From positions 22,508,001 to 22,572,000 of the forward strand of contig NC_087245.1 of assembly GCF_037042905.1 (NCBI RefSeq): DNA of 64,000 nt, in the 5' to 3' direction. Every line of letters begins with the position of its first letter. Positions within the stretch are counted from its first letter, which is position 1. This DNA is from Lytechinus pictus (taxonomy: Eukaryota). The translations under genes were made by a program, and so were the position numbers. Shown one piece after another: positions 3,001 to 63,700 of the stretch. Under the pieces are notes generated by a model, which was given only the letters and a program-made list of their open reading frames with translations, made no database searches and was not told the origin of the DNA.

Positions 3001-3014
3001 CTTGCACGGACTAT

Positions 3015-8654: not shown

Positions 8655-9222
8655 TCAAAGTTAAGTTTACCCCACCAATACATAGAGGAAAATAAAACTA
8701 GGATGAATTAATGCTATCATATAAATTTCATCAAAATCAGATGTGAAATAAAGTTATGGAATCATGGTTCACATATTTTCACCTAACAGTCATGTACACA
8801 ACATGGGTCATTGCAGATGAGAGAGTCCATTAGGTCACACATTAACCATTCTTGTATTTTATGAAATGAAGTATAAAATATTCTTGCCGATTGACAATAA
8901 GAAATCTCATGATTGGATAACAAAAGGTAACAATGTCAAAAAAATCAGCATGTTCATGGAGGAATCAAATTACATTTTTCATTATAGAGGAGAAAATGAA
9001 GAAATAGTATGACACCATCAGTTACATGTATCTCATCTGCATTTTGCCGGTGTTATACACATATAATTGTTTTATGAAATTATGAATAAAACTTTTAAAA
9101 CGTCATTATGCCATTTGTTATTTTACATCCGATTTTTATGATAATTTTAGCTTTGTGTTGCTCAATATTTCTTTAAAATATTCAAAGAAATCCACTTGTT
9201 GTTTTGGCTTGATGTGGCATTC
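8655..9222. mobile_element. Old degenerate copy of the Kolobok-like MITE family
   Basis: Contains aaatttcatcaaaatcagatgtgaaataaagttatg and the reverse ttttacatccgattttt; the termini are decayed. Confidence 0.5.
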
Positions 9223-9757
9223 AAAATGTGCCAATTCTTAGGTATGAAATTTTTTTTCTTCAATTAAAAGAATTTACTTTTAAAAATGGACTAAAATACA
9301 GAATCTGCATAAAATGGAGGTTGTGTTTAAGATTTTCAAGAAAATTTGACCCATTTTCTGCATTTAATTTGGGATGGTTATCTGTATTTGGGTGTACAAA
9401 TAAGACTACTTTCAATTATTTTGTTTTATCGTTAACAGTATGTTTAATTAATAGAATTTAAAATTCATTTGTTCTGACATGTAATCTTTCATAAGCTTTG
9501 GGGAAATGCAGGAAGTGGTTTCATACTTCAAAAAAAAAAAAAAGAATCGGTCAATGTGGCAGCCAAATGTGTACTTTTGTTGTCAGATTTGTTATAGTCC
9601 GAACTGGATGTACATGTACATTGTACTTGTATGTCTGCAGATTTCGAAGCCACTAACCAACATAGATGACTGCCAGAGGCATTGTTTTTCAGGTTTTTTG
9701 TGTCCATCAGGTTTTTGTTCTCATATTAAATAAAGAATCGTGGCCAACATCAAACTT

Positions 9758-12700
9758 TAGTCCGGGTTATAATTGAGCAAGGTGCCACAAGAAAAAGGAG
9801 AAATTTTCATATAGTGCTTCTAGACCAGTTTTTTACGCTGAATATGAATATATGAGGTAACCAGGCTATATCCTGAAAATTAACCAGTGAGGGCGCTTTT
9901 TTCAAAATGGCCGCCAAATTTTCAGAACATTTGAATTTTCGTACATAGATTTTGACATAAATATTCCATTGCCACAAAATTAGTGTCATATGAAAGACAA
10001 ATAAATTTTCTACAATTTGGTACTATTTATAGGGGATAAGTAGGTCATTTGGCTGAGATTTTAAGTAGAAAACTGCATTTTTTGTCATTTTTTCCCAAAA
10101 ATTGAAAATTTAGCAAATACATGATTTTACATAATTCTGAGAAAAATGAATGAATTACCTTGAAATGTTCCAGAAAACTTTATTGACATACTATTATCAT
10201 GTGGATGAAATTCCAACTCTGTATCATTCTTCTTAGCAAATTTATAAGGTATCAAACTTGAATACTTCAATTTCAGAAATGTCGCTTTTTGTATGCATTT
10301 CCATAGACTAATACGTATAACATGTACATGTATAATATGTATAATGTATAGTTTAATAAAATTTAAAGGCAATTATCTCCGCTTTTTAACCACTTGGAGA
10401 GTTAAGAGTAGGCTTTTCTCTATCAGCTACATAAAACAAAATGTTGGCACATCGAGGCCTAACACTCTCATGGGGTGGGGGTGTCGAAGCCCCCCCCCCC
10501 ACCCCCTTTGGCTATATCATGTTGTTGTATATTGCCTATTGGAAAATCACTATTTTTTGAAGCACCCATTGAGGCAAAAGGCATTTCTGCTATACAGTAC
10601 AGCCATTTTAATTACTTTGAAACCACTTGGAGAGGAAAAGAGTAAGCTTTGTCATGTTTGTTCTACCAGCTATATCAAAAGAAGTGGCACGTACATCGAA
10701 GCCAACCCCTCTCGGGGGGAGGGCGCTGGGGAAGTCACCCCTCCCCCTTTTGCTTATTGCCAATGTATTTGGAAATTCACCATTTTGGACCCAACATTGA
10801 GGCAAAAAAGCGTTTGTGCTTTATAGTATTTTATCAATTTGAGAGAGTAGAGTTTGTTCTACCAGCTACACTAAAAGCGCTAGCACATCGAACCCTAGCC
10901 CTCTCATGGGCTGTCTAAGTCACCCCCTCCTCTATATCATGTATGTTGCCTATTTATTGGAAATTTCACCATTTTGGATCACCCATTGAGGCATAAGGGC
11001 GTTTCTATATCATACAGCCAATTTTATTTTCTTGCAATTACTTTGAGAGAAAAGCGTAGGCTTTGCTCTATCAGCTACAAATTATTAAGAAGCGCTGGCA
11101 CATCGAAAAATATCCCTCTCAGGCGCTGTCTAAGTCAACCCCTCCCCCTCTATATCATGTATATTGCCTATTTATTGGAAATTACACCATTTTGAATCAC
11201 CCATTGAGGCAAAAGTGCGTTTCTACTATATAGCCAATTTCATTTTCTTGCAATGACTTGTAGAGGAAAGAGTAGGCTTTGCTCTATCAGCTGCATATAA
11301 ACAAGTGCTGGCAAAGAAAAGCCTACTCCTTCCGGGATGCTGTTGAAATCACCCCATCCCTTTTGCATTATAGCATATTTATTGAAAAATTCACCATTTT
11401 GGAGCCCCCATTTAGGCAAAAAGGCGTTTCTGATATAGTTCTGCCACTTTTACTGCCTTGAAACCACTTAGGGAGGAAAGAATAGGATTTGCTTTATCAG
11501 CCACATATAAAGAAGTGCTGGCAAATAAAAGCCTACCCCCTCCGGGAGGCTGTTGAAATCACCCCACCCCTTTTGCATTATTGCCTATTTATTGGAAAAT
11601 TCACCATTTTGGAGCCCCCATTTAGGCAAAAAGGCATTTCTGATATAGTTCTGCCACTATTACTGCCTTGAAACCACTTAGGGAGTAAAGAATAGGTTTT
11701 GCTTTATCAGCTACATAAAAAGATGTGCTGGCAAATAAAAGCCTACTCCCTTTAGGGGACTGTCGAAATTACCCCCCCCCCCCTTGAAATTCACCATTTT
11801 GGAGCCTCCATTGAGGAAAAAAGGCGTTTATGATATATAGTTCTGCCACTTTTAAATCATTGAAACCACTTAGGGAGGAAAGAATAAGTTTTGCTTTATC
11901 AGCCACATATAAAAAAGTGCAGGCAAACAGCAGGAGGCTGTCGAAATCACCCATCCCTTTTGCATTATTGCCTATTTATTGAAAAAATCACCACTTTGGA
12001 GCCCCCATTGGGGCAGAAAGTCATTTCTGATTATGTTTCTGCCTTGTTTCACCCTTGAAAACTCTTGGAGAGAAAAAATAGGCTTTGCTACATATAAAGA
12101 CATGCTCGCAAATAAAAGCCTAGTATCCCCATCAGAGGGCTGTTGAAATCACCCCACCCTTTTTCATTATTGCTTATTTATTGGAAAATTCACCATTTTG
12201 GAGCCCTCATTGAGGCAAAAAGGCGGTTCTGATATATAGTTCTACCACTATTACCGCCTTGAAACTACTTGGAGAGGAAAGAGTAGGCTTTCCTCTAACA
12301 GCTACATATAAAGAAGTGGCTCTACTATATACCAGAAACACTTTTTTGCCTCAATGGGGCTCCAAAATGGCGAGTTTTCCAATGAATTGGAAAAAATCGT
12401 GAAAAAGGTGGGGTAACATCTATATAGTCCCCTGAAGTGGGTCAGGCTTCGATATGGCAGCAATTCGTTATATATAGCTGAAAGATGGGAACCTAATCTT
12501 TCCTCTCCAAGTGGTTTCAGGAAAATGAAATTGGGTGTTTTATACAGCAGGGCTCAAAAATTGTGAATTTTCAAATAATTAGGCAATAATGCAAGAGGGG
12601 TGGGGTGATTTGACAGCCGCCAAGATAGGTAAGCTTCAATGTGCCAGCACTTCTTTGTAGAGCAAAGCATATTCTTTCCTCCTTAATTGGTTTCAAGGCA

Positions 12701-14627
12701 ATAAAAGTGGCAGAACTTTATATCAGAGATGTCTTTTTACCTCAATGGGGGCTCAAAAAAGGTGAATTTCCAATAAATAGGTAATAACGCAAAGGGGTGA
12801 GGGGGTGATTTCGACAGCCCGCAGAAGGGGGTAGGCTTTTTTTTGCTAGCACAAAATTATGTCGCTGATATAGTAAAGCCTATTCTTTCCTCTCTAAGTG
12901 GTTTCAAGGCAATAAAAGTGGCAGAACTATATATCAGAGACGCCTTTTTGCTTCAATGGGGGCTCCAAAATGGTGACTTTTCAACAAATAGCCCAAAACC
13001 GAAAATTAGTGGGGTAACTTCTACAGCCGCTTGAAGGAGATACGCTTTGATTTGCCAACACTTCTTTATATGTAGCTGATAGAGCAAAGCCTACTCTTTC
13101 CTCTCCAAGTCATTGCTAGAAAAGAAATTTGCTGTACTATATAGTAGAAACGCCCTTTGCCTCAATGGGTGATGCAAATTGTGACTGTCCAATAGATAGT
13201 CAATTACCGAAAATTGGTGGGGTAAATTCTACAGCCCCCTGAACATTCTGAAGGGGATAGGCTTTGATTTGCCAACACTTCTTGATATGTAGCTGATAGA
13301 GCAAAGCCTATCTTTCCTCTCCAAGTCATTGCAAGAAAATAAAATTGGCTGTACTATATAGTAGGGACGCGCTTTTGCCTGAATGGGTGATCCAAAATGG
13401 TGAAATATCCAATAAATCGGCAATATACATGATATAGAGGGGGAGGGGGGTGACTTAGACAGCCCATGAGAGGGCTAGGGTTCAATGTGCCAGTGCTTAT
13501 TTATATGTAGCTGGTAGAACAAATTCTACTTTTTCCTCTCTAAGTGGTTTCAAATCAATAAAATGGGGTGTACAATAAAGCACAAACGATTTTTGGCCTC
13601 AATGTTGGGTCCAAAACTGTGAATTTTCAAATAAATTGGCAATATTAAGCAACCCCTCCCCCCCCCCCCGAGAGGGGTAGGCTTCGATGTGCCACTTTGT
13701 ATGTAGCTGGTAGAACAAAGCCTATAAACTCTTTCCTCTCCAAGTGGTTTCAAAGCAATCAAAGTGACTGTACTGTATAGCAGAAATGCCTGTTTTTGCT
13801 TCAATGGGTGCTCCAAAAAACAGAGATTTTTCCAACAAATAGGCAATATACAACAACATGATATAGCCAAGGCCAAGGGGGGGGGGGTGACTTCGACACC
13901 CCCACCCCATGAGAGGGTCAGGCCTTGATGTGCCAACATTTTGTTTTATGTAGCTGATAGAGAAAAGCCTACTCTTAACTCTCCAAGTGGTTAAAAAGCG
14001 GAGATAATTGCATTTAAATTTTATTAAACTATACATTATACATATTATACATGTACAGTACATGTTATACGTATTAGTCTATGGAAATGCATACAAAAAG
14101 CGACATTTCTGAAATTGAAGTATTCAAGTTTGATACCTTATAAATTTGCTAAGAAGAATGATACAGAGTTGGAATTTCATCCACATGATAATAGTATGTC
14201 AATAAAGTTTTCTGGAACATTTCAAGGTAATTCATTCATTTTTCTCAGAATTATGTAAAATCATGTATTTGCTAAATTTTCAATTTTTGGGAAAAAATGA
14301 CAAAAAATGCAGTTTTCTACTTAAAATCTCAGCCAAATGACCTACTTATCCCCTATAAATAGTACCAAATTGTAGAAAATTTATTTGTCTTTCATATGAC
14401 ACTAATTTTGTGGCAATGGAATATTTATGTCAAAATCTATGTACGAAAATTCAAATGTTCTGAAAATTTGGCGGCCATTTTGAAAAAAGCGCCCTCACTG
14501 GTTAATTTTCAGGATACAGCCTGGTTACCTCATATATTCATATTCAGCGTAAAAAACTGGTCTAGAAGCACTATATGAAAATTTCTCCTTTTTCTTGTGG
14601 CACCTTGCTCAATTATAACCCGGACTA
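9758..14627. mobile_element. Giant foldback non-autonomous DNA transposon (4870 bp), possibly Academ-type
   Basis: Ends TAGTCCGGGTTATAATTG...CAATTATAACCCGGACTA flanked by CTT (9755-9757 and 14628-14630). About 690 bp of near-perfect inverted repeat is followed by ~210-bp tandem units, forward to ~12320 and reversed after it. No transposase ORF. Confidence 0.9.
10385..13995. repeat. ~205-215 bp satellite-like units inside the foldback element (about 10 forward, about 8 reverse)
   Basis: Recurring core TTGAAACCACTTGGAGAGGAAAGAGTAGGCTTTGCTCTATCAGCTAC near 10617, 11248, 11458, 11668, 11860 and 12259; reverse complement near 12503, 12890, 13100, 13316, 13737 and 13979. Confidence 0.9.
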
Positions 14628-19020: not shown

Positions 19021-21789
19021 ATGGCTAGCAAGATGGCAGAGCCACCACAATCCAAAGGAAATGGCCTGGACAGTAGCCAGCTTCTACCTCCAATGCATAC
19101 TTCCAGGAGGGGCCTTCAACAAGTCCTGGACCTCTTCCGTAATGCCACACCCAATCTCAAAGAGCTCCTACTTCAGGAGGCAGATATTATCTATGAGTGC
19201 AGGGTGTGCAAAGGCCTCTTTCGTGGTCTTGTCAACTTCATTGAGCATAAGAGATCCTACTGCAAGCTGCTCTCTGGAATAGACCAGCACTGTGCTACAA
19301 AGACCTTGGGTCTAAACATGAGGGACCTCTTTCCCAATGAAGATGCTGCTGCTCCTCAGGTTGAACCCCAACCACCAACTGGCTCACCTGTAAATGAGAG
19401 AGGAGTGGCCAAGAGGAACGTGGTGGCACCAATTATAAATGATCAGTCTTCTGAGGTGGGCAACACCAATGCTTACTTGATACTTCGACCTATCCCAAAT
19501 ACAACTGAAGCCATTGAACAGCAGGTGGTGAGGTCTGATCACATTATCCATCATGATGAACTGGACAAAATGAGTGTATTTGCCCCAAAGCCGGAGGGAG
19601 GGGACACATCAAAGATAGTTGGTGAGATAGCCATTCGTCAGGCAACAAAGAATGCCAAAACAACCATTGAGAAACGAGAAACTCTCCATAGCCTTGTGAA
19701 GGGTTTCCGCGGCAAAAATTCTGCAAGGAGAGAATTGTTTGAAGGAGTGGAGAGTTCTCAAGAGGCACAGGCTCATGTTGAGAAGGTGATTGATGAAGGA
19801 AGGAAGAGTGGAGCTCCAAAGAAAGTTATTTCCCTGCCTGTCAAGCAGAGCAACCCTCTGCAAGTGCCAAAAGAAAAGAATCTGCCAGGTACTGTAGCTT
19901 GCCAACCAACTGAGTGTACAATTTGTAAGAAGAAGTGCAAGAATTGGACAGCATTGGCTTGGCATATGAGGATCCATAAAAGACCTATATTCAAGTGTTC
20001 TCTTTGTCGTTACAGCTCTGTGTCAGTCTACAACTTGCGTAGGCATATGCAAACAATGCATCATCTGCCTACTGCTAGGGTTGATGAACTCCTCAGTTTG
20101 AATGTGGGACAGCAGAAAATTGCACATGAGGGCCGTGAGAAGGAGGCAATGAAGCCAGGCGAGGGTAGCTCTTTGCCAACTTGTGATATTTGCTTCAAGA
20201 CCTTTGCCAATCGACGAAATGTGCTACGACACAAGGAAATCCACCGTCGTGAGCAGCTCAGCTCTGATCTGAATCGTGGAAGTGTTCCACAGACACACTC
20301 AAGAGAAGAGATTGCTCGTAATAAGGTGTTGCAGATTATGGATGAAAAGAAACTGAAGTGCAGACGGTGCCACAAGCAGCTATCAACCATGAGGAGGCTG
20401 CAACAGCATTGCTGCAATCACTTTGGATTTAATCGATATAGATGTATGCTCTGTCCATATGAAAATAATGACTATACCCAGATGAGGAGGCACATGATGG
20501 GAAAACACGGAAGGCAATTCCGTACTATCCATCAGATCTCTGAAGCAATTCGGAATATGAAGGTTGGAATTTGGGTAAACCTTGTTCAGAATGGAAATGG
20601 CTCCAGTAATGATGAAGTCGTAAGCCCCAATCCCAGGAAATCTAAAGACTTGATTGACTCTAAAATGACTGCTGTAAAACTTAAAGGCAAATGTGCTAAT
20701 GTTATCACACCAAAGAAATTGGAGATAGAGGACACATCAGATCTCAATGGAAATGATGTGGAAATGGAAGATAGTACATTGGAAATAAAAGGTCAACAGG
20801 AAACTGGAGCTAATAAAAAGGATGAAGAAAATGAGGAAGATGAAGCAGATGAAGATGAGGAGGAAGATGATGATGAAGAAGAAGATGAGGATGAAGACGA
20901 GGGAGAAGAAGAAGAAGAAGAAGTGGAGGAGGGTGAGGAGGAGGAGGAGGAGGAAGAGGAGAAGGAGGTTGATAATGAGAAAAGAAAGGCAGCAAGTAAT
21001 AAAGAGTCAGCTAAAAATGAAGGACGATCTGGAAAATCTCAGTCAAACAAAGAGAACAAAGTTGTTCCCAAAACACCCTCAAAGCAGTCTGCAGTTAACA
21101 GTACCACTGCCAAGGATATCCTGTGGACTCCTCCAAGTAGCAATGGAGCCAGAAAAAGTCCTGAACCTACTCCAAGTAGAGATATGCCCATCAGACAAGC
21201 AAGGTTGAACCACCAAAGTGTGTCTCCCCGCAATCAAGCAGAGAAGACCCAAGGAGAGAAGCCGAGTGCTGAAAAGACCCAGCAGGTCAAACGGGACTTG
21301 ACCAAAACATCCGGGGAAAAGACAAAAGGAAGCAAAAGCGAGATGGATGAGGAGGATAAGAACGCTCTGGAACTGTTGATGGACAAGCGGTTAGTGCGAT
21401 GCCTCAATTGCAACAAGCGTTATCAGTACCTCAGCTCATTGCAGAGACATGTCCGCATTCATCTCCTTCGCAATGAGACAGGCATACCACAGTCTACTGC
21501 AACAAAGAACCCTGCAGACACCTCCAAGAAACACAATGCCATCGAGTCGCTCATCAACACCAATCTCTTAAAGTGCTTGAAGTGTCGTAAGCGCTTTGAA
21601 AGCATGAGTTCCTTGAAACGCCATGTTGCAAGGCACTTGGGCTACAGTAGCTTCAAGTGCAAATTCTGTGGATATCTGTCACGTAACTACACCTGGTTCA
21701 AGCAGCATCTTAAAATGAAGCATGCTGATCGAATCACTGATATGACTCAGATGGGTAGTCTCATAGGTAGTATGAAGACCAAAAAATGA
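19021..21789 (+). CDS. ZNF800: Zinc finger protein 800-like (922 aa, nine zinc fingers, acidic tract)
   Basis: Long ORF. The N-terminal block GLQQVLDLFRNATPNLKELLLQEADIIYECRVCKGLFRGLVNFIEHKRSYC resembles the conserved ZNF800 N-terminus, and eight more C2H2 motifs follow, plus an E/D tract at ~20821-20970. A polypyrimidine acceptor (ttttttcttctgcAG, AG at 19018-19019) lies 1 nt before the ATG. Confidence 0.88.
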   Translation: MASKMAEPPQSKGNGLDSSQLLPPMHTSRRGLQQVLDLFRNATPNLKELLLQEADIIYECRVCKGLFRGLVNFIEHKRSYCKLLSGIDQHCATKTLGLNMRDLFPNEDAAAPQVEPQPPTGSPVNERGVAKRNVVAPIINDQSSEVGNTNAYLILRPIPNTTEAIEQQVVRSDHIIHHDELDKMSVFAPKPEGGDTSKIVGEIAIRQATKNAKTTIEKRETLHSLVKGFRGKNSARRELFEGVESSQEAQAHVEKVIDEGRKSGAPKKVISLPVKQSNPLQVPKEKNLPGTVACQPTECTICKKKCKNWTALAWHMRIHKRPIFKCSLCRYSSVSVYNLRRHMQTMHHLPTARVDELLSLNVGQQKIAHEGREKEAMKPGEGSSLPTCDICFKTFANRRNVLRHKEIHRREQLSSDLNRGSVPQTHSREEIARNKVLQIMDEKKLKCRRCHKQLSTMRRLQQHCCNHFGFNRYRCMLCPYENNDYTQMRRHMMGKHGRQFRTIHQISEAIRNMKVGIWVNLVQNGNGSSNDEVVSPNPRKSKDLIDSKMTAVKLKGKCANVITPKKLEIEDTSDLNGNDVEMEDSTLEIKGQQETGANKKDEENEEDEADEDEEEDDDEEEDEDEDEGEEEEEEVEEGEEEEEEEEEKEVDNEKRKAASNKESAKNEGRSGKSQSNKENKVVPKTPSKQSAVNSTTAKDILWTPPSSNGARKSPEPTPSRDMPIRQARLNHQSVSPRNQAEKTQGEKPSAEKTQQVKRDLTKTSGEKTKGSKSEMDEEDKNALELLMDKRLVRCLNCNKRYQYLSSLQRHVRIHLLRNETGIPQSTATKNPADTSKKHNAIESLINTNLLKCLKCRKRFESMSSLKRHVARHLGYSSFKCKFCGYLSRNYTWFKQHLKMKHADRITDMTQMGSLIGSMKTKK

Positions 21790-48544: not shown

Positions 48545-49058
48545 CTCGTTTACAGAGGGATGTTTCTCAGCCCAGATGAGTCAAAGAGAGAGAGAGAAAG
48601 AGAGGGGGAAATGATGTTGAGGAACCCTGCAGATAAGATTAATAGAGAAAATTGAATTATAGATTTGATTATTTATCCAAAAAAAAATTCATATGGTAAG
48701 AAATATGTTTGGAAAGTAGTTAATAAAGAATGTTGTCTTTAATACATCTTTACTTTAATACCATTGTGATTATTATAAAATTCTAATATGAGGCGTAAAA
48801 TTGCAACAAATAAAAACGATTGAAAACTAATGAACCATGGGGGTAATTCTTGAATTGACATTCTGTGAGACTATCAAGAACATCTTGACACACAGCCGTG
48901 TAGTGCTGTGCGGTATATGCAGCTCTCGGCCTACAGCCTACTAGCAATTTCATCCCACTAATGCATTTTAATTGAATCAATAAACTACTTCCAACCTGAT
49001 GCTTTTTACAGAAGTAGATCACATCTCCAGCTCACAATCAAGAATAGACTGTGTCACT

Positions 49059-49536: not shown

Positions 49537-50999
49537 ACTGTGATGCAAGGCAAAAACACACAACAAAGTGAACCACTGGCAAGCTAATTAATAATCATCA
49601 GATTTTACATGGCTTGGATTATGCCCAGGGTTCAGTAATGAGCACATGGTTTATGAAGGGAAATTTGGGAGTCTGGTAAAAGAGGAAAAGGAGTGGGAAA
49701 TGTGGAAGGGTAAAAGAAAAGAAAAGTGTGAAGGACAGGAATGAAGGAGGAGAAAGAGACAGAGAAGAAAGAGGAGAAAATAAGAATAACAATATAAAGA
49801 AGCAAAAAGGAGTCAGGGAAAAGATAAAATGAACAGAATAGAGGAAAAAGTGAATATTTAACCTTCAAATTGTCATGTTGATCAATTACATGTTTCTGTC
49901 ACATGGATGTGGTTACAGGCATTTCCATGCATGTGCTTTTATTAAAATGGCAAAAAAATGCTTCAATTATTCCATACCAGAAGCAGATCAATAAAAGCTT
50001 GTTCCCTCATTTACAATGAGTTTCAACAATGATACTGTAATTGGAAGAAATAATGCAACTGTCACAAGCAAGGTTGATGTACTGTTTATCATTTCTCTGT
50101 AAAAACACACTGGTCAGAATAATTGAATTCACAAAAGCAGGTTTTGAATAGCATAGTGAGCAGTATTTTTCTTTTTTTATAAAACCTTTTGTCTTGTGCA
50201 TGGAAAGTCAAAACAAGAAAAAAAAAGAATTTCATTACCCCCCCCCCATACATTACAACAAACAGATAGAGTACATGTACGTGTGTTATTTGCACATGTA
50301 CATGTACTGTAAAAAGTGCAATGTAGTTCAAGGAGACAAAAATACATAGTTCTCGAACAGAGGAACAGGTCTGTGAAAGCATCATTATAAGTACATGAAG
50401 ACATATGGCCTGAATATTACAATTAATATAGGCCTACAGGTACATAATTATGCAGAATAGTACCGTACTTTACATCCATCTCATGAAGGGAATAAATTCT
50501 GACAAAGAACAATTTTTATCTACAGGTATTAGTTTATTTGTTCAATGAGCAATAACTTGATATCACTACAATTACTCCAAAATTAGTTTTAATCATACAG
50601 AAAATGTACCCTCCCCCACCCACTATCTCTCTCTTTCATGTACATGTACTTTACAGTAATATGCATCTGCGATATTTGCAGTAATGAACTGGAATCTACG
50701 GAGTGGATAGAAAAGGGAACATACATGTACTGCACTATGATGTTATTGTATGCTTCACTTTGATCAATGCATACATGTATGTTATTCAGACTCAATCTGC
50801 ATGCAAAACAAGAGACATTATTCCCGGGTGAAATGATCCGATCAATATCAATCAGACTATTACATAGCAACATAATTACTACCTCAAGCTCCATTAGTTT
50901 TTGTCATTGGGAGTACATAGATCATTAAAGCCCACATGTTATTACCAATGACGTTCTAAACCAACCCGAACTGATCAAGGCATGTACAGGTATTATTAA

Positions 51000-51600
51000 A
51001 GGACAAGTCCACCCCAACAAAAAGTTGATTTGAATAAAAAGAGAAAAATCCAACAAACATGACACTGAAAATTTCATCAAAATCGGATGTAAAATATTAA
51101 GAAAGTTATGATATTTTAAAGTTTCGCTTAATTTCACAAAAGTTATTATGCTCATCCTGGTCAGTATGCAAATGAGGAGACTGATAACTTCATTCACTCA
51201 CTATTTCTTTATTACCGGTATATGAAATAACCTAATTTTCTCCTCATTGTCAAGTGAAACAACGATTAAATCCTCTCTGAATATGTAGAATTAGTATCAT
51301 GGTTCAGTCAAGTTGGTCCTTATTGTCAAATCTGTAAAAAATGAAATATCGTATAATTCAAACAATAAAAAACAAAAGAAATACCGTAGTGAGTGATAGA
51401 CATCGGCTGTCTCAGCATATCACTGAGTCGTGCATATCACTGTTTTGGGAAAAATATAAAGCGAAACTTTAAAATGTCATACCAACTTTCTTATTTTACA
51501 AATTACATCCAATTTTGATGAAATTTTCAGCATTATGCAAGTTTGATTTTTCTCTATGTTATGTATTCAAATCAACTTTATCCTGGGGTGGACTTGACCT
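51000..51600. mobile_element. Kolobok-like MITE (TTAA target duplication)
   Basis: TTAA|AGGACAAGTCCACCCCA...TGGGGTGGACTTGACCT|TTAA; shares AAATTTCATCAAAATCGGATG with 41753-42338. Confidence 0.85.
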
Positions 51601-53388
51601 TTAATATGACAGTTTAAATCCAAATGAATGCAAATCAAGAATACACTTGATGGTAATAATAATAATAATACATTGATAAGGGCCTAATGTAATGAACAGA
51701 ATATCTGCAGCATTGGTGAAGATACATACTGTACTATCTTGAAGTCTTAGACGATGTACATGTATGTGTACATGAAATGAGAATCTCACTCCAAGCAGCT
51801 TTTATATATCTCCCCCTTTCCTTCCTCCTAACTTCCTCCTTTCCTTCGTGAAGAGCCTTTCTTTGTCACACGCAGCTCATCTCAATTCATAATTCAATCA
51901 AAAACACTTGCGCAAAGCTTGGTGATGTGCACACAGCAACGTACATTATCATACACAGTATCACAGTACTACATGTATGCTCTGTATTTTTTTTCTTCAG
52001 CTGCTGGTGCTGTATAGGGAATGAGTGATCTTATTTTGGTACATTGTACATTGTACGTCAACGTTCAAAATGCCTCTGCATTGATGCGCATGTTAATACA
52101 TGAACATCCTAGTGGCTCTGGAGTTTGTACAGTAAAGATACAAACTACTATTCGTAGAGTTTCTTATCATTATTTCTCTTAATTGTTGCAATATATCATT
52201 TTGGTTGAAAATTGAATAGAATATTTGCAGGTCTGTATTGAAATGGGCAGCTTACATGTACGTACAATGTACGTGTGTATCTGAGAATAATAAGCTTGCA
52301 ATTGTTGAAATATTGTCAAAACCTGTCAACATTTTGAGTATTGCTTTGTCATCAGTTCAGTTTCTGCCTCATTCAATATCAATGACTGATAATGATAAGG
52401 AATGACTTGAACAGGCTTGGAAGTCTGGAATCATATATTTCTGAGAATGTTATTGGCATGAATTTGTCCAAACTTGGCACCTACACAGTACATTACGTGT
52501 ACATGTATCAAGCTTTATATAAGAGTGCATTCAACCAATTTTCTTAATAGTGATAATTGCTTTAGGGCAGGGCTCAAATACGAATCACATCATGTATCAA
52601 AAACAAAAAACAAAGGTAGAGTGGGAGTGGGACAGCAATAAAGCGATTTTCTTTGGTGAGAATTTCCTACACCATTGTGTGAAATATACATGTACATGTA
52701 AATATCTAAAAGACTTAAACACAAACCTCTACAGGTGGATAGCATTCAAATTTCAATCAATTTTTCATCATCCCTTATTCTACAATTTTATCTAATTTCA
52801 AGCTTAGCCACCACAGGGCCTGGGAGTAAAAATCGATTGATCAAATGGTTTGAATGAATGGCTTGCCGCCAATCCCGCTTAGACATTTGGGATACTTGTA
52901 ACTTGAATACTCAACTTCAAGTACACGTAGATCTAGTATTAAAATGACAAGATAACAATGATAACAATAAATATTACTGTAAATTATACTATAAAATACT
53001 CTGTGCAGTTTGACCCAGGAGGCCTACAGTGTACATTGCATCCAGTACTGTTGACAAACCTAAAAGCAGGTCACTAAGTGACATCATGACTGAGGTCAGA
53101 CTAATGAGTAATGAGATGTGTTCAACAATGGTTCTCCAGGATCAAAACCCACCCATTCCAGTGACTGAAAGGCACATATTTTTCAGATAGCAATAATGTG
53201 CTTGAACCATGGGATGGCTGTATAATAACTTTGAATGAAAACATATATTCTGGGGTTTAAAAAATAGGTCGATTGTACCCAGCCAAAGCGGCTTATTTCC
53301 TTTTCACCATTAAATCCGTTGATCTTTTGGTAATACATACAGGTACATGTAGAGTGCATGAGACATATTCCAATATAAAGTACATTAA

Positions 53389-54022
53389 TACCCTTTTTAC
53401 ACACGCTAAAATTTCCTTAACCCCGTACTATAGGTGGGGCTAAATTGCCATTTAGCACCACCTATAGTATGGGGTTAAGCTTAGCCCACTTTCTTTTTAC
53501 ACAGCATTTTTGCAAAGTGGGCTAACCCCACCTTTAGTACGGGATTATTTGGCCCTGCAAAAAAGCATGGTTATCCCAGCAATTGCGGTGCTAAGAGCGA
53601 TAGTATGGGATTAAGATCGCTAGTTTAAAACGTAAGTGGGCTAAGCGCTCCCATTCATGCCCCGCAACAGAGCAGGCCCTGTTATCCAATCAGAGGTAAG
53701 CATAACGAAAATTCATGAACAGCGAACACGGCGATGAGAAATTCCGAGTGAAGTACTTGTACTACGAATGATCGACAAATTTATTTAAAGCATGCGCAAT
53801 TATGGATATGACCCGAATGACCCCTCAGTGCGCTCGTGAATATTCATGAGCTACCACTAGTCTGGGGTTAGCGAGTTTCGTGTGTGAAAAGCAAGCATTC
53901 CTTATCCGGGGTTAGCAATAACAATTTGGCATGTGTGAAAAGGAAAAAAAATAGTACGGGGTTAAGGATAGTACGGGGTTAGCGATAGTCCGGGGTTAAG
54001 AAAATCCTCTGTAAAAAGGGTA
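53389..54022. mobile_element. PIF/Harbinger-like MITE, TAA target duplication
   Basis: TAA|TACCCTTTTTACA...TGTAAAAAGGGTA|TAA; many internal TAGTACGGGGTTAAG and GGGCTAA motifs. Confidence 0.85.
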
Positions 54023-54376
54023 TAACAGTAGGCAAGATAGAAAATCAGCATGATTTCTGGGAAACCTTTCAAATTAACCCGTTTTTCAAAGCCGTTCGTG
54101 GCAGTTGATGTGGGAATATTTTTCAAGTTAACAAGTCATTTTCTGGCATGGCAATACTGTTGGCCAAATAATATCTTGGCAGATTATGTGAGATAAACCT
54201 ATGAAAATTGATATTTTTTTACTTTAAAATGCAAGTCAACACCAACAAATGTTTACTTGAATAGATAGAAATTAAACAAGCCTAATAATACTGAAAATTA
54301 GAGAGCTACATGTATGTTATTTTTTCTATTACATGTAATTCATATCTGTTTTTAATCAATTTTTTTAGATGACTTG

Positions 54377-54486
54377 GTCATTTAAAACTATTTTTTCTTT
54401 CCCATAACTCTAGTCATTTAAAACTATTTTTTCTTTCCCATAACTCTAGTCATTTAAAACTATTTTTTTTCTTTCCCATAACTTTA
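54377..54486. repeat. 36-bp tandem repeat x3
   Basis: GTCATTTAAAACTATTTTTTCTTTCCCATAACTCTA starting at 54377, 54413 and 54449. Confidence 0.9.
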
Positions 54487-54900
54487 GTTATGGGAATTAG
54501 CTTTCTTAATAGCTTTCGTTTGTTTCTTTACAAAAAAAAGAAGCAAGTATTATTTCATACAATCCACTCTTTAATCTACATGTATTGTTATTCTTTCAAC
54601 ATTGGTTAAATATATATTTATGTTAAAGTGTATATTATGTTAAAGGTATATACATTTAGTCTACTCCTAACCTTTACCCATTCCTGCTTTTGACATTACT
54701 TCTCCCTCTGTATACTTTTCTTTTTGTATCCCCTTTCCAATATTATACATTAGTATACTTTATTTTTTTTTTACTGTTTTGCTTGTTTGTTTACTGAAAT
54801 TTTACTCTGTACAAATTTATGTAATTCAGCCTTTGGCTGCTAATTGAATTTTTATCACAATAAATACCATTTATCTATCTACAATGTATCTATCTATCTA
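54487..54900 (+). mobile_element. Possible 3' fragment of a non-LTR retrotransposon
   Basis: T-rich body ending in AATAAA and a (TCTA)n tail, followed by GTCATTTAA, which also occurs upstream (possible target duplication). Confidence 0.35.
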
Positions 54901-55722
54901 GTCATTTAACAAAATAATCTAACAAAAACTATATTATGAAACTCTGACATGTTTTCTTCATTACAACCAATACTTCAAGGTTGAATTTATGGGTAGAATA
55001 TGTAATTTCAAGTTATGAAATATAAACAAAAGCAACAACAACAAACATGTATAAAGAGCTTACAAAATACATTGGTTACAAAACCTTGATTACAAAACTC
55101 AGCACATGTTCAATCAAATCTGTCCATCTGTTATCATTTGAAAACAAAAGCCAAATGTTGAACAAAAGGCAAAGTTGAGTGAAATAGATTTCTCTCTCTT
55201 TGAAACCAGATCTGGAAAGATATCGATTTTTGGTGTTAGATAAAGATGGGAAATGTGAGATAAATTGCATCTGCTAATGGAAATGTGAGAACCACATAAA
55301 AGGGATTTAACCAAAATGGCATTTTGTGTCTAAAAGAAAATACATTGGTGAAAGTTAAACAAATAGACAAAATGTAAAGAAGTAGAAGTTGCAATCACTG
55401 TGCAAGGAAATTTCACGTTGGCTGAATAGTTCAAGCATGTGTAAAGCTTTTAAGGGTCAATAATGAGAATGATATTCAAATATCAATATCAGTCTAATCT
55501 TTCAAAAATGTAGCACCAATTTACGATATACTCATGCGTACAGTCACTGATTTCATTTTCAAATATATTCCTAAATTGCAATTTCTTTCAAAATTTCGAC
55601 ATCCAAGGGGCCCCATGCCCCCTAAGATCTGCACGGTCTACATTCTGTGTGGTGAATGGAAGTGACGGAACAGATCTATTTGTGACCAAAGTGATGTGAT
55701 ACATGTTCAGCACTCATTGTAA

Positions 55723-56229
55723 TATGCTTTTCACACTACTTTTTTCCCTTAACCCCGGGAAATTGGTGGGGCTAAGGGGGGCCTTAGCCCCACCAATTTC
55801 CCGGGGTTAAGCTTAGCCCACTTCGTTTTAACACTACGTTTTTAAAGTGGGCTAGCATGGTAAATAGTACGGTACTATCTAGCCCTGCAAAAAGGCAGGG
55901 TTAGCCGGCTTATTGTGGTGCTAGCACCACAATTGCGGTGCTAAGAGATGCAGTGTGAAACGAAACTGGGCTAAGGAAAAGTGGGGCTAAGCAATAGCCA
56001 ATCACAGAAGTCAAAATTGCACGTTAATCACGCTCTGTATGGTAAAATAATCAATATTCATGAGCTGTGGGATAGTCCGGGGTTAAGGCGTTAACCCCGG
56101 CTAAGCAGATAGTATGGGGTTAAGAAAGACAGTGTGAATCCAAAAAAAGATAGTATGGGACTATGGGGTTAAGGATAGTTTGGGGTTAAGGATAGTATGG
56201 GGGTGAGGAAATGCAATGTGAAAAGCATA
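55723..56229. mobile_element. PIF/Harbinger-like MITE related to 53389-54022, TAA target duplication
   Basis: TAA|TATGCTTTTCACA...TGTGAAAAGCATA|TAA; shares GGGGTTAAGCTTAGCCCACTT and GATAGTATGGGGTTAAG with the previous element. Confidence 0.85.
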
Positions 56230-56813
56230 TAAGAGTGTTTTAGATATTAAGCAAATGCTCATATTTCATTATGAATGACATACGACACATACATAGGCCT
56301 ACATTGTTACTGTGGCCCACATGTGGGAATGCAAACATCTTTGTAAATATTGTCAGTTTTTAGTAATCTCATTGTTACCTACAATGTACCGCATATTGGG
56401 TGCAGTAGGGTCAATGATTGAAGGGTTAATAATTACTGTGAAAATACTGCACAGACCATCTTACGTGCATGACAGGTTTTCAAATCATTGTGACAATGTA
56501 AAAGAAAGAAGAAAAAAGTCTCTGTGGATCAGTGGGTAGCAATAAAACAAGTCAAATTATATATATTTACAGGTAACTGTATAGTACTAACAGATTATTA
56601 AATCTATTTTTGAAAAATAGACTGACACAGCAAAGCACATCACCTTGAAAAAGTTGAGAAGACAGGAATTTCAATTACATGTAAATCTCATCTTTTTCCA
56701 GAAAACCTGCTTTGACTTATTTTTTGAAAATATATCATTCTGTTAACTATTAAATGAATGTCCATGTGCAATGTGCATGTAATGCATTTTCAAAGTAATA
56801 TAAAAGTACTCAC

Positions 56814-57157
56814 TATCTTTCCCTGATCCCCAGCTGGCAGACGGTACAGAGCTGGGAAGATAAGGTCTTTCTGCTTGAAATTCTGAAGTCAGGTTGAACT
56901 GTATCCTGAAGCAAACGTGGCAACCCAGTTTTCTGCACAAACCAGAAAGGTGAAAAATCAAGAGACCAACTTCTGATGAAGAGCAAGGTAGGCAGGCTAC
57001 TATCCAGAGGATAGTTTAGTTCACACCATCCAGACTGATCTGCTAGAGCAAGGAAGTGACCTTTTCATGATATTTAGTCCATTGTCATCAGAGTAGACCA
57101 TCTTCATGCTTTTTGAAGATTTCACGGGCTTCAGAGCACCATCTTTACTTTAGAGCT
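56814..57157 (-). other. Candidate non-coding 5'-UTR exon of the Vac8-like gene, containing short uORFs
   Basis: GC-richer 344-nt block bounded on - by tatacAG and GTGAGT, with stops in all three frames. Confidence 0.35.
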
Positions 57158-57983
57158 CTGTATACATATAAGAATAACAAAGGTGTATTGGGTTGAGGGT
57201 TGAGGCTAAACACTTCATTTGGCCCTATTTTTGGCTCTCTCCCTTGCTCGTTCTTATTCACAAAATCTTGCCTGCACTGCTACAGTAAACAAACTTTTGT
57301 TTACAATATTTACTGGATGGAGGAGCACAAGTGTACATGTATGTGTCCATGCAGTCCCCCTGCATATGAAACATGCAATAGTAGATCGGACAGATCATAC
57401 ATTGTATCAACCTCCTTTTCCCCCCCAAGGAATGACAAATCAGACAAGTCAATTATCATATTTACACATAATCCAGGTCAATGTCGCTACATGTATAGAT
57501 ATTGTCTGCATGTGGCTACTTTAATAAGAAGAGTAAACGGTTCGCCCTGACAATAAAAGTAAACAACAAATAGTTGTTATTCATTTTGTTTACATGAAAT
57601 GAGTCACTCCAATGAAATATCAGAAGGTTAAGAAAAATTCAGGCAAGGCCAAGCCCCTGTAAAAGCACATAGTTGAAGGGCAGAGTACTGCAATCAGCCA
57701 GGTCTTGGCTGCAGATTGACTATATATATGCAATAAAATGTTAAAGTTGTGATATTATATTTATAATTGAAATTAAAATTTGCATGAAACAGATTTTTTT
57801 TCAAAAAGAAGAGAGTTTGAAATTGGATATCGTCAGTGTTTGCTCAAGAGATCCATGCAATATTTTAACCCATTCTGAACCAATTTTGCCCAAATAAATA
57901 ATCCTTACACTGGGAGCCTAAACAAAAGGATAGACATTCTCAGGCTGAATGTAACATGCAATCAACCCTGAATTCAATCATGC

Positions 57984-58260
57984 AGGTCGAAAACAAGGCA
58001 CAAAGCGCTGACTTTATTTTATTAGAAAGTCAAAAAGGGGCCTAAGCTTTCGATCCTAGCGGAATCTTTGTCGGAGGCAAAATGACAAACATATAAAGTG
58101 GAACAACCATAATATAGACCACAAACAAGCTACAGCAACACTAGAAACAAGGAGACAAAAGGGGCATTAGTGAGTAGAGAAGACCAATCAGGTTAGTGAA
58201 GGGGATGAAAGAAAAGGAGTAGGCAGACACAAAGGGAAGTTAGTGTAAGTAAGGCCAGTA
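57984..58260 (-). mobile_element. Penelope-like pseudo-LTR fragment with a hammerhead-like motif at 58040-58078 (core CCGACAA, G8 mutated); boundaries approximate
   Basis: Near-identical to the 34.4-kb insert. On - it has a pyrimidine-rich leader, the hammerhead motif, then AATAAAATAAA. Confidence 0.6.
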
Positions 58261-59535
58261 AAAAGCCTCAAGCCAAAGAGCAACTAATTAATTGTTCAAA
58301 TTGATGAGAACAATCATGTAATGTACATTTTAACACAATAATCATTCATAATGCAATTTATCAGGAAAATTATACCCTGTAAACACTGTACATGTACCTT
58401 CTTTTTAACTGAACATATTTATTTTTTAATCATTAAGGGCAGAAAAAAAATACTTGACTGCAACCCAAGAATCATGGAAGCAAACAAAAGTACTTTGGGA
58501 GTTCACTGATGGTTTGAGTAATTTCAAACATGATAGCGAATTTGTGATGGCTGATATATCGGGCAAGTGATCAACATCTGTTACAACATTATGCAAGCCT
58601 TCTGATCTTGATCACAAGTACTGTAGGCCTACACTGTACGTGCTATTTGTCATGTACACATACATAACTAAGGCCAAAATGAGTCATGCAGGCTGCCGAA
58701 TGAGTGTTAAACTTTCACTCAAAATCTGACATTCTTTACAGAAACCATGCATATGATTCTATTACAAGCGAGAGTTCCTGAATGATTACTTCGGATTTGT
58801 TAAAGGAAATCAAAAGAGTACTGTATAAAAAGCAAACAAAATAATTGTTCAGAATCTTTATTTTTAAGACAATGTTCACACTGAAATCAATATAAAAAAG
58901 GGTCTGCGAAAATCCTAGCAAGAATATAAGAGTTGATGAAGAAAAAAATTTGATTTTTAAACAACACATACTGCACATGTATTATAACAAGCCATCTATG
59001 CATATACTGTACATGTACAGTGTATTAATAAATTTCATGTAATACAAATTACACAAAACCTTAATACTTTATTATGGTTCATGATGATTGGAAATATTAC
59101 TCATCGAAGCATGTATCACTGTGTCTGAAAAGAAATTAAATGCACAGGTACATATGTTTTAATATTTATGTACATTTATAATCATTTTCAGATTGAGGAG
59201 AAAATTGTATTATTCGATATTAGTTGCTCACATATGAATCTTCATTAACTGTTTATCTATACATGGTGGGTTCCAGTCTAACGTTCAATACTATGATTTT
59301 CTCAATTTTCCATTATGAAAAACAACTTCTTAAAATTATTCATTGCATATAATATATTCATGGCCTTGAATAGTTTTGTTGAAACATCTATGGTTTTCAA
59401 TAAATTCTTTATCAGATTTTGAACATTAAAGTTTGATGAATGAGTCAGAGTTTTAGTTAGCTAAGTAGTCTGCAGTCCCAGACCCAAATTGATTCGAAAA
59501 AAAGTATTTTTCTAGACAAGTGTGCAACTTCCATT

Positions 59536-60217
59536 GGGTCAGATGCATAAAAAGTAGCAATTGCTTTTGCTAGGCTTTTGCTTGATTCCGTATGCATAAA
59601 AATGAGCGAGCAATTGCTTTTGCTAGTAAGATCAAGGAATAGCTATTGACTGTTAGCATTTCCTTGACAATTATACAGCTACTGCTAAAAACCGTATGTA
59701 TAAAGCGAACATTTCGCTCGAACATTAAAGCACTTGCTTGGGTTTTTTCAAGCTCCGTCAGAGCAGCTTGGGCGTTTGCTTGATCAGGGCATTAGCAATT
59801 TTTAATCACATTTATGCACCTGAGAGAGAACTCCAAGGTTTACTGTAGCCTACATGTACATTTTTTATTCCTAAGACTGTAGTGAAAATCGAATGCCAAA
59901 TATTTGTTGAAAAGAAACAACTTAGTTTGACACAACCTCTGAGGAAAAAAATGTATGAAAGCGGTAAATTGCACTGCCACATCAATGCGTTCGAGTCCTG
60001 CCTTTTCTGTGAGTCGTGTTCACACCAGTGTAACGTCGCTAATGTTCAAACCACTAGCAACTGCTTTCTGAAGGCAAGAAAAGGGTTCAAGCACAAGCAA
60101 AGGGTTATGCATATGAAATACAGCAACTGCTTAAGCATTATCTTTTGCTTGGTTAGCGATTGCTTGTGCATGAAGCAATTGATTGCCAGCAAATGCTACT
60201 TTTTATGCATCTGACCC
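59536..60217 (+). mobile_element. Harbinger-like MITE, copy A
   Basis: TIR GGGTCAGATGCATAAAAAGTAGCA...TGCTACTTTTTATGCATCTGACCC; flanks ATT/AAT. Confidence 0.85.
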
Positions 60218-60220
60218 AAT

Positions 60221-60706
60221 GGGTCAGATGCTTTTCTTGCCTTCAGAAAGCAATTGCCAGTGGTTTGAACAATAGCGACGTCACGCTGGTACGAACACGA
60301 CTAACAGAAAAGGTAGGACTCGACCACAAAGGTGTGGCAGTGCAAATTACTGCTTCTTTCCTAAAACATCTTTTCCTCAGACGTGGTGTCAAACTATACT
60401 CGTTTCTTTTTGATAAATTATGTGGCATTTGGTTTGCACTTTAGGAAGAAAACCAGTACTACATGTATTTTACGGTACACCTTGGGATTCTCTCTCAAGT
60501 GCATAAAAACGTGAATACCCTGATCAAGCAAATGCTCAAGCTGCTATGACGGAGCTTGAAAAAATTCCAAGCAAGTGCTTAAACACACATGCGAAATGCT
60601 CGCTTTATGCATACGCTTCTTAGCAATAGCTGAAATGCTAGCAGTCAGTTAGCGATCACTTGAACTAGTTAGCCAAAGCAATTGCTACTTTTTATGCATC
60701 TGAACC
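60221..60706 (-). mobile_element. Diverged, internally deleted copy B of the same MITE, tail-to-tail with copy A
   Basis: Its reverse complement is collinear with 59536-60083; ends GGGTCAGATGC and GCATCTGAACC|ATT. Confidence 0.8.
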
Positions 60707-63700
60707 ATTATATTTACTGTGTGGTGTCATGGTATGTCCATTTCAGCTAAGTAACTCTGCAATTACTGACCACTGTTAACATTTCAATAAACTGGAAGTT
60801 GCTCCTGCAAACTATTCTACATGTACAATTTACACATGTAACTACATGTACAACCATAATGATGATCTGTTCATGGAAATTTTTTTTGAAGTCATATTCA
60901 TCCTCTCCTTAAATCCAAATTTGGCGAAATTCACATTTTCCTTTCATTGCTACATTATCCTCTTTTTAAATAAACTGCAGAATTCATAACTGTATGGAGA
61001 CTAAAATTAATAAACAATATCAGTACTTTATGAAAATTTGCCAATTTGCACGTACAAGTAAAACAGTAGTTTTGAGTTTCATTTTGTTGAAAATCTTACC
61101 GATTTTACAGTAGTTTAGTGCTTATTTGACACTACTTATTTCCAATAGAGTTTTTATTATTTAAAAAGATTACCATGAAACTGAGCACAAATTTTTGTGC
61201 TTTTTTATTTCTTAAAATATGTCTTTGCACAAAATGTGGTCACTTTTTAGCAAAGGGGTTATACATGTACCTGAACACAGCGAGTACAGCTCTAGAGAAA
61301 TGTCTTTCACTATTACACTGTACATGTACATGTATTAAAAAAGCCTCCATTAATTACCTTTATTCCAATTAATCCATTATTAATTCCATTTCTGTAAATG
61401 TTACAATAAAAACGCAGGTCCTTGTATCAAAATAAGTTGGCCAACATGGCCTTCAAATACACACCTTGGTCTTAAAGATGTAGTTCCTCATACGTTCACA
61501 ATACATAATTTTCTTCAGCAAAATACCTATTCTATACACGCATGCAGCGTGATCTCGGTCAGTACTCGCACATGAACGTCAAATGCCAATTTATATTTAC
61601 CTGCTCACAAATGAAGCTCATTGAATTCCCTTGTATGGTAAAGATACTTACAAGTAATAATTTACATCTTTACCAGCATGTCTGTACAGTTCCAACCTTT
61701 GCAAACAATACCACATTATGCTTTGTTGTTCTCCAGCTCTTTTATAGCCACTCTGAACAATGTTATGCATGCATTATTCAATCGCTCACTACAAACACAA
61801 TAGCAGCAGCTACCATCGTTTGGAAAGGTTAAATTCATTATGCATGCTCAAGTGCAAGCACAAGGGTCCCTGGCTGAATAGTGAATAGTCTATGATGCAG
61901 ACTCTCACATGTTGCCAGCAATATTTAATTAACTTCAAAATAAAAAGAAAAAAGTTTGCATGAAACCAATTTGCATATAAAAAATACATCTAATAACCTA
62001 CATTAGGCTACCGGTACTAGTATTCTGGACATACCGGTATGTGACTAGATCTCTTTTGTCTGCACAAGGGTGCTGAGTAAACGCTATCACATACATGTAC
62101 ACGTACAAGTATATCCGGCAATTTTCTCTGGAGCAAATATCATGGAACCGCATGTCGAGATCAAGACCAATGATAACCATACATGAAAGTTTAGAAATTA
62201 TTAATAAGTTTTGTACAAAATGCTTTGAAAAGATCCACCTACATGTAAATGTATGGCAGGGCTGTACAAATGGGGAGGGGGAATCCCTTGAAATTTTTAT
62301 TTAAGGAGCAATTATGTTTTGGGGGCAATAGGGACTTTTTTTGCTTGTCAACAAATTATTGACAGAGAAATAATTCAAATTTGCATGGACTTGTGGGCTT
62401 GCACATTCAAGTATTAGTGCCACATACAAAATTATTTTACAGAAGCTCTTTGACATGTGATGTCATGTATGCTGTCTGTACATTTGTCAGCACTCTACAT
62501 GTATTTCAAAGACATCTGGTGATTTTTTTCTGTAAACGATGACTCACAACTAGCTATGCCTTGATCACACTGAAAACCGGGTTTAAACTTGGCACATTCT
62601 CAAGCTCAACTTTTGTTATTACAGACAGGGTGCAAATAAATATATTGGGCTCTATTCCATGCACATGCACTTGCATTGTGTATGGGAACACCATATATGT
62701 TTGCCATTGCTTGCAAACACTTCACTTTTTTTTAGGTCAAATTATTTTTTCAAATTACAAACTGCTTTATCAGAAGTCCAAAAACAGCACAATATACTGT
62801 ACAGACCTGTATACATTAATATGGAGAATATATGCAGGATGTTTTCATATAGGGCTGTGCTGGGTAATTTTCTGAACCAGTCGTTTCTATGAAAATTGAA
62901 TTATAATAACAACAAAATCAAAAAGAGAAAAAGAGGAGAGCATGCATTTTTGTTGATTTTGAATAAATGTTCAAAATAATAAAGTTCATAATTCTAGAAC
63001 CCCCCATGTACACAATAAACAACTGGTTCAGGAGACTACTCAGCACATCCTTTTGTGAAAAGCCACCCCCATTCTGTTGTCTTGAAAGGGTGCAGCCCCC
63101 GGGGGGGGGGGGGGGGGGGTGGCACTCATATATGCTTGTGGTACGGGGACTTGCCGCTTTGATGACCCCCTTTTTCAGACCTAATTTCTAGATCTCTAAA
63201 TACTCCAAATGACAAAAAGTTCCATTCAAAAGCCACCTCGCCCTGCTCTCAAGACCTCCGCTACAAAACATCTCAGTTCTTCAATTGTTTACAAAATGGT
63301 GAATAAATGTGTTTTCAAGCTATTTAGAATGCTGAACAAGAAATTAATACTCTTATGTATCTGTATGTGTCTCAGAAGTATTTTGTTTATGTAAAAAAAA
63401 GGGAAATTAAGTTTTCTTCATTTGATTGAAAGTCAATGTAAATTTAGCGTATGGGTGCTTACGTGTCAATGAAAGTAAATCAAACAAATTTATGTTGATG
63501 AGTATACAGTAACATACATGTACATGTAGAGGGCGTAGGAAATGTAAACAAACCGCATTTTGGTGAATGGATGTTAGTTTATTACAGATTATGAGAATAA
63601 AGTTTTAATAAAGAAATCTTATTAGGAGAAATTGAGCTTAAAGTGAGCGAATGAATATATAAACATTATTAGTTCAAAAACCATAACAGCGGTGATGAAG

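Follow-up and report, generated by a model that had tools for sequence, protein, structure and literature searches.

Probable excision footprints of TA-targeting transposons in non-coding DNA of Lytechinus pictus

In a 64,000-nucleotide (nt) stretch of Lytechinus pictus DNA (assembly GCF_037042905.1, contig NC_087245.1, positions 22,508,001 to 22,572,000; hereafter the window), one palindromic octamer that begins and ends with TA, TACATGTA, recurs dozens of times, which raises the question of how this word came to be written into the sequence so often. An earlier note on this DNA had proposed that it and its relatives are scars left at TA dinucleotides by departing transposons. What is observed is enrichment of the word, gain of whole words at TA, a spectrum of variants that differ at the centre, a bias in the flanking bases and stacking of words. 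We consider it likely that the words are end-joining excision footprints of CA-ended, TA-targeting transposons of the Tc1/mariner/pogo type, most of which lengthen the empty site by six nt (+6).

Abundance, distribution and spectrum of the words

TACATGTA occurs at 56 sites, from 9023 to the last at 63521, while dinucleotide shuffles contain 1.64 copies on average and 7 at most, and none of 100 shuffles reaches 56. An order-2 Markov background predicts 3.2 copies, and the word is the top enriched 8-mer of the window once homopolymer runs are set aside. The enrichment is a real and strong feature of the window: the impression that the word is present dozens of times when few copies are due by chance was right, as were all eight coordinates quoted for it, and the proposed count against a Markov background by compartment places 55 copies in the 47,437 bp of CpG-poor non-coding DNA (~1.2 per kb) and one at the edge of a satellite block. 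The 56 words collapse to 51 chains, 39 of which are single words, and the two-unit stack TACATGTACATGTA is found five times. According to the word counts, they form, together with the centre variants TACWGTA, TACAATGTA, TACACTGTA, TACACGTA and TACAGGTA, a field that extends over 9023–63528.

The ratio of observed to expected CpG (o/e) is ~1.0 up to ~7.7 kb and mostly 0.1–0.6 beyond, a pattern that would be expected of mosaic gene-body methylation. The CpG-rich block at 1–7700 (CpG o/e 1.03), presumably unmethylated upstream or intergenic DNA, holds 510 TAs and no TACATGTA, where ~7 would be expected at the mean per-TA rate and just ~2 at the rate of the sparse gene-body zone; for a single block, the absence of the word from CpG-rich DNA is suggestive. 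Exons, delimited by eye, contain none in 5,142 bp with 230 TAs. By zone, the density per kb is 0 (1–7.7 kb), 0.76 (7.7–10.3 kb), 0 (satellite), 0.6 (14–19 kb), 1.02 (21.8–30.6 kb), 0.24 (30.6–47 kb), 1.33 (47–50 kb) and 2.29 (50–64 kb). The sparse zone at 30601–47000, with four words, is itself CpG-poor (o/e 0.34) and lies mostly within an armadillo (ARM)-repeat gene, and the densest zone at 50001–64000, with 32 words, probably comprises 5′ introns of this gene, judging from splice signals and a contig match. The idea that the scars lie mainly in gene bodies is partly supported: it draws on the empty 7.7-kb CpG-rich block, while density inside CpG-poor DNA alone shows this approximately ninefold spread. 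The observation that TACATGTA is missing from coding exons and from the first 9 kb was right; the other words are found at 233, 2404, 3092, 5331 and 8378 and, as TACWGTA, three times in coding exons.

Against the order-2 Markov background of the whole window, TACAGTA/TACTGTA (28 versus 12.5 expected), TACCGTA/TACGGTA (7 versus 2.8) and TAGGCCTA (4 versus 0.4) are also in excess, TACCGTA and TAGGCCTA being minor classes beside TACATGTA. The TACAGTA copies at 10593 and 13771 arose from TATAGTA by substitution in satellite units and are not insertions. All TA..TA words were ranked by length in 49.3 kb of CpG-poor DNA, with a background trained after the word had been collapsed. TACATA/TATGTA ranks first of 10 at +4 (75 versus 60 expected), TACAGTA first of 32 at +5 (23 versus 10.7) and TACATGTA first of 136 at +6 (54 versus 2.9), and among inserts of five nt TACAATGTA ranks first of 512 (10 versus 1.7), followed by TACACTGTA (5 versus 0.7). 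For each insert length from 2 to 5, the top word is the left stub joined to the right stub of a CA...TG end.

Changes within TACATGTA itself cluster in the same place. Loss of a central base, which yields TACAGTA, is enriched, loss of the C (TAATGTA) is not (16 versus 19.9), and among eight insertion variants clear enrichment is seen just in the two at the exact centre, such as TACAATGTA, while the off-centre TACCATGTA is absent (0 versus 0.8 expected). Replacing the central A gives enriched words (7 versus 2.3, 7 versus 0.9 and 9 versus 4.0), whereas replacing the C does not. Such variants might have come from decay of the main word, but decay would not be confined to its centre, and this variation matches a junction between two fixed stubs. 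Over the six outer positions together, substitutions sum to 55 versus 43 expected, so most words appear to be young, with a divergence of roughly a few percent. Overall, 77 one-mismatch copies are observed versus 46–52 expected, beside 55 perfect copies.

The flanks of the 51 chains favour C at position -4, A at -3, C or T at -2 and G at -1, where T is depleted (chi-square P 1e-4 to 7e-3 at -4 to -1; no bias at -5 and -6). They resemble the Tc1 target consensus CAYATATRTG (PMC9635669), but with G instead of A at -1, and decayed neighbouring scars could create such a bias as well. Moreover, stacking exceeds the ~3 cases that would be expected: 17 of the 56 words have a TA in common with a neighbouring word, which in eight cases is of a different kind (1.7 expected, P=2e-4), and chains of three words are located at 58619, 59005 and 61314. 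This excess is in line with the earlier note's suggestion that old scars are targeted again: a scar places CATG beside each of its own TAs, close to the Tc1 target, and should thus attract new hits. Slippage can explain the homotypic stacks, which include 10 of the 56 words, but not the mixed ones. An (ACATGT)n slippage microsatellite was rejected as the source of the words because most chains are single and because of the eight words in mixed company, and the footprint of an element with a 3-bp target duplication was rejected because 3-bp direct repeats flank just one of the 39 single words.

Gain of whole words at TA

Three duplicated sequences had been put forward as before/after controls for the gain of a word at a TA, and all three are real. 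The first is a 232-bp tandem duplication at 44031–44505 (plus strand), in which copy alignment places a TA at 44168 opposite TACATGTA at 44400; apart from the 6-nt word, two substitutions and a 1-nt gap, the copies are identical. Its direction is unpolarised, and the two copies could be two haplotypes assembled in tandem. The second is a foldback element at 9758–14627, whose arm alignment places a TA at 10325 opposite TACAGTA at 14054, again unpolarised; besides the 5-nt word, about two substitutions separate the arms over the outer ~750 bp. The 4.9-kb foldback has TAG...CTA ends and a CTT direct repeat, its outer arms are perfectly complementary over 570 bp, and its interior consists of two opposed arrays of a ~210-bp satellite; by its ends we take it to be Academ-like.

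The third control, and the only one of the three that is polarised as an insertion, is TACCGTA at 51382–51388 (plus strand) within a TTAA-flanked miniature inverted-repeat transposable element (MITE; 50996–51604), the arms of which differ by CCGTA. We compared contigs of four public sequencing runs over 44600–64000, a stretch that lies outside the first two controls. Contigs of this MITE family match up to 51383 and continue directly with GTGAGTGAG, without CCGTA, in 295, 314, 242 and 65 cases in the four runs. As the other family copies read TA followed by GTGAGTGAG, CCGTA at 51382 is an insertion. The same comparison provides a new control at 54880–54888 (plus strand), where TACAATGTA interrupts a (TATC)n tail and 9, 7, 8 and 4 contigs of the four runs lack seven letters. 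Removal of these seven letters, whose identity is deduced from their position, restores a pure (TATC)n tail, which indicates that TACAATGTA was gained. Neither the CCGTA at 51382 nor the seven letters at 54880 can be derived from their own flanks. In all four cases, a duplicated TA surrounds the insert where the empty site has a single TA; of these, the sites at 51382 and 54880 are the polarised ones.

Two weaker controls involve diverged sequences. A GGCC-ended MITE (29161–29478) carries TACATGTA at 29431–29438 (plus strand) in its right arm, while its diverged left arm is 6 nt shorter at this place, and TACCGGTA at 51213–51220 (plus strand) corresponds to a diverged paralogous arm at 41936–41995 that is likewise shorter by 6 nt. 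A paralogue scan of all word sites within the window cleanly recovered just the first two controls, and the best 12 of 873 indel rows from the contig comparison all fall in high-copy repeats. The MITE copy at 50996–51604, situated in the densest scar zone, shows at least five small length gains beside TA relative to its family; the extra letters that adjoin TA at 51095, 51481, 51496 and 51558–51564 could be explained by slippage.

Excision footprints and competing explanations

The following sequence of events would account for these observations. It is established that such an element duplicates the TA into which it inserts and, for Tc1 and Sleeping Beauty, that its later excision by staggered cuts leaves two to three terminal bases on either flank. 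The word spectrum suggests that germline end-joining would mostly retain both 2-nt stubs, giving TA-CA-TG-TA, and that rarer stub pairs would give TACAGTA (+5), TACAGGTA, TACACGTA and TACAAGTA (3+1) or TACAGTGTA and TACAATGTA (3+2). All CA-ended families, whatever their third base, would converge on the +6 word, which would explain the dominance of TACATGTA. The CATG that a scar places beside TA comes close to a preferred target, CAYR-TA-YRTG, so that scars may be hit repeatedly and build up stacks, and slippage may lengthen the homotypic ones.

The likeness to Tc1 comprises the TA target, the CA/TG stubs and TACATGTA itself, a word listed among Tc1 footprints (PMC3520976); the flank bias resembles CAYATATRTG, with the reservations given above. 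In contrast to Tc1, however, +6 dominates here (an excess of ~51 versus ~15 for +4) and has built up to ~1 per kb. The footprint of Sleeping Beauty is cag/ctg (PMC5224488), and TA-cag/ctg-TA forms the second class here; for the ZB transposon, slight enrichment in gene bodies is described (PMC7913693). Those systems record engineered single events, whereas +5 is minor here and partly background. The earlier note had named TA-CAG-TA as the established scar, which is correct for the Sleeping Beauty type, while the dominant TACATGTA is a footprint that is called rare for Tc1 (PMC3520976).

Several points weigh against this interpretation. No intact TA-CA...TG-TA element is present within the 64-kb window, where matches to this pattern are due to chance, internal to the satellite or caused by the words themselves; the earlier proposal of TA-transposon scars is backed by whole 5–7-nt gains at TA and by the CA...TG stub spectrum, but not by a donor in the window. 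The length spectrum is unlike that of model systems: 78% of Tc1 footprints in the soma of C. elegans are +4 (TATGTA/TACATA; PMC12632400), yet the +4 excess is small here, and the +6 footprint is the one described as rare. Since footprint length is a trait that varies between families, the dominance of +6 marks a variant instead of an exclusion from the Tc1/mariner/pogo footprints. The 3+3 word TACAGCTGTA is uninformative (0 versus 0.08 expected). The first two controls could be deletions instead of insertions, and no TACATGTA site is polarised against an outgroup. Support from the contigs of a sister organism is a hint only: word density correlates with gap letters per base (Spearman 0.63) and not with mismatches (0.07), but the correlation stems from 24 overlapping, non-independent pieces from one organism (organism A; 8 of the 32 pieces shown, from run X11 and hence from a different, closer organism, were left out). 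Finally, TACA or TGTA is over-represented at the reconstructed empty sites of single words (15 of 39 versus 16% of all TAs, P=6e-4), as local templating would likewise predict.

This last point leads to the strongest alternative, namely a transposon-free repair in which snap-back synthesis or the opening of a hairpin mends a break close to TACA/TGTA by copying the reverse complement, which yields TACA-TG-TACA, with slippage then producing the stacks. Besides the bias of the empty sites, the first two controls are both located at TACA, and the homotypic stacks would fit such a process. Nevertheless, the template is missing at 24 of the 39 single words and at both polarised insertions (51382 and 54880), one fixed word across varied flanks is not predicted, and a Tc1-like target preference gives the same flank bias. 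Hence, we regard templated repair as unlikely. Somewhat less probable still is that a host transposase-like or terminal-transferase-like enzyme, domesticated or abortive and perhaps guided by chromatin, cuts TA and writes the word directly without a long-lived element. The abundance of words in the CpG-poor non-coding DNA without a donor copy in 64 kb, the unusual uniformity of the product and the presence of stacked words in many unrelated eukaryote-like contigs (see below) would suit such an enzyme, but we know of none that writes such words, and the centre-variable spectrum fits two joined ends.

It is quite improbable that TACATGTA is a protein-binding motif, recognized by an Irx-type homeodomain or MYB-type protein, that arose through point mutations and is maintained by selection. 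PsMyb37 binds this word in Phytophthora (PMC11134190), it is cited as an Irx site (PMC3520976), and its perfect copies far exceed what the one-mismatch copies would suggest. However, the words arise in one piece within young repeats and are missing from the CpG-rich upstream block, and word-rich pieces have more, not fewer, gaps between organisms. CpG deamination of fixed-length precursors (TACACGTA, TACGTGTA and TACGCGTA) in methylated DNA, which the earlier note had itself listed as a possible refutation, has hardly any credibility left although the words are confined to CpG-poor DNA and TACACGTA/TACGTGTA is enriched (7 versus 0.9), as it is largely refuted by the equally likely sibling TACACATA/TATGTGTA, which occurs 8 times (3.8 expected) against 54 copies of TACATGTA in the same region, TATGCATA is counted just 4 times, the CpG-rich block lacks the precursor and deamination cannot alter length, whereas the controls are length gains.

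For the excision footprints that we favour, the question of donors concerns the minor classes as well. A MITE at 49058–49537, of very high copy number by contig depth, with TA-GG...CC-TA at its ends and a presumed TA duplication, is a candidate donor type that under a 2+2 rule would predict TAGGCCTA. The 3-nt and +4 counterparts expected from such GG-ended elements, TAGGCTA/TAGCCTA (3 versus 2.9) and TACCTA/TAGGTA (21 versus 20.3), are not enriched in the CpG-poor DNA. For the notion that several families contributed, this MITE is the one candidate. The elements at 53389 and 55723 looked TA-flanked and were considered as TACCGGTA donors, but fit TAA duplications with TA-starting ends better. 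Because they do not duplicate TA, the GGCC-ended MITE, the TTAA-flanked MITEs and the foldback, with its TAG ends and CTT repeat, were dismissed as donors. The elements at 53389–54022 and 55723–56229 are related high-copy MITEs that share TAA...TAA flanks and contain internal CCTTAACCCCG repeats but differ in their terminal bases; a TAGTCCGGG motif occurs both in them and at the foldback end at 9758.

Stacked words are also found at no fewer than 116 loci in metagenome contigs, many of them unrelated and eukaryote-like; as these loci were picked for carrying the stacked word, their word counts are biased. Their CpG o/e ranges from 0.12 to 1.40, which indicates that CpG-poor DNA is not a general requirement. 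Among seven inspected contig pairs, L054 and L061 are 99.1% identical over 1.74 kb and differ by a single indel longer than 1 nt, TA versus TAGGCTA, a polymorphic scar-like event in another organism; the other six pairs show mixed indels, many of them unrelated, including one looser +6 gain resembling TACATGTA (L091/L096). Palindromic MITEs of ~130 bp with TA-CAGGGTGG or TA-TGGGGTGG flanks occur on the same contigs as stacked TACATGTA (L030, L036, L045 and L057); in L036 and L057, which belong to one sample series, the MITEs that share contigs with stacked words read TA-CAGGGTGG...CCACCCTG-TA. A 26-nt MITE pattern had no match in the metagenome contigs, and an 18-nt part of it gave two matches in a viral collection, neither with a BLAST alignment to the window of at least 100 nt, which are attributed to chance.

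The same octamer is highly abundant in the non-coding DNA of Phytophthora as motif-1/AM-20 (PMC3520976, PMC11134190). There it is interpreted as a promoter binding site bound by PsMyb37, and a footprint origin was considered and dismissed by the authors, whereas in the window TACATGTA is missing from the CpG-rich upstream block and appears to originate by insertion. The (ACAGT)n microsatellite of Trichoplax, unexpectedly abundant near genes, has stacked TACAGTA as its unit, yet it was published as a microsatellite and possible binding site and its unit is a pentamer and not a hexamer (PMC2871265); in the main text of that paper, the terms footprint and excision are absent. It is conceivable, although we would bet against it, that scars represent a self-feeding, chromatin-biased mutational process in many eukaryotes, in which footprints converge on TACATGTA, create better targets, seed (ACATGT)n and (ACAGT)n arrays and provide palindromes that later become binding sites. 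If so, the Phytophthora AM-20 and Trichoplax ACAGT motifs would have originated as transposon scars, and the density of scars would chart the accumulated history of transposition and repair in the germline. Excisions normally leave nothing to be seen, and genome surveys are therefore limited to elements that remained in place. With a uniform scar at ~1 per kb, the history of insertion plus excision, the germline choice of repair (+6 versus +4/+5) and chromatin bias would become readable from sequence alone. Such scars would also contribute substantially to short indels, and a mutational origin would become available for abundant motifs that are at present interpreted as microsatellites or binding sites. 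As a footprint, the word is already known, but the scale, the +6 dominance and self-retargeting were not found in print in the literature searched. Nor was a genome-scale report of such scars in animals found there, although indel spectra may be contained in supplements to genome papers on lancelets and echinoderms, and the main text of PMC4284660 contains neither the term footprint nor 6 bp.

Gene and repeat setting

The window contains a C2H2 zinc-finger open reading frame (ORF) of 922 amino acids at 19021–21789 (plus strand, from its translation), which lacks TACATGTA, and the ARM-repeat gene at 33650–48544 (minus strand, exons delimited by eye), whose first ATG lies near 48544. We presume that these are ZNF800-like and Vac8-like, respectively. 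An exon at 56813–57157 on the minus strand has AG/GT borders, is matched over its full length by an X11 contig and contains no full open frame; it may be a 5′ untranslated exon of the ARM-repeat gene. At 41163–41626, a 164-bp tandem triplication copies most of an ARM-repeat exon including its acceptor side, with copies 2 and 3 diverged, and possibly reflects exon duplication or an assembly artefact.

Other repeats of the window we presume to be Academ-like, Kolobok-like and Harbinger-like. An intronic (CAC/CAT)n array of more than 300 bp occupies 36549–37001, and nested inverted-repeat elements lie at 59531–60706, the inner one (59923–60396) with the ends TAGTTTGAC...GTCAAACTA. A short hairpin at 42906–42972 with the ends TA-CG...CG-TA (19/20 complementary) is located within a locally CpG-rich patch.

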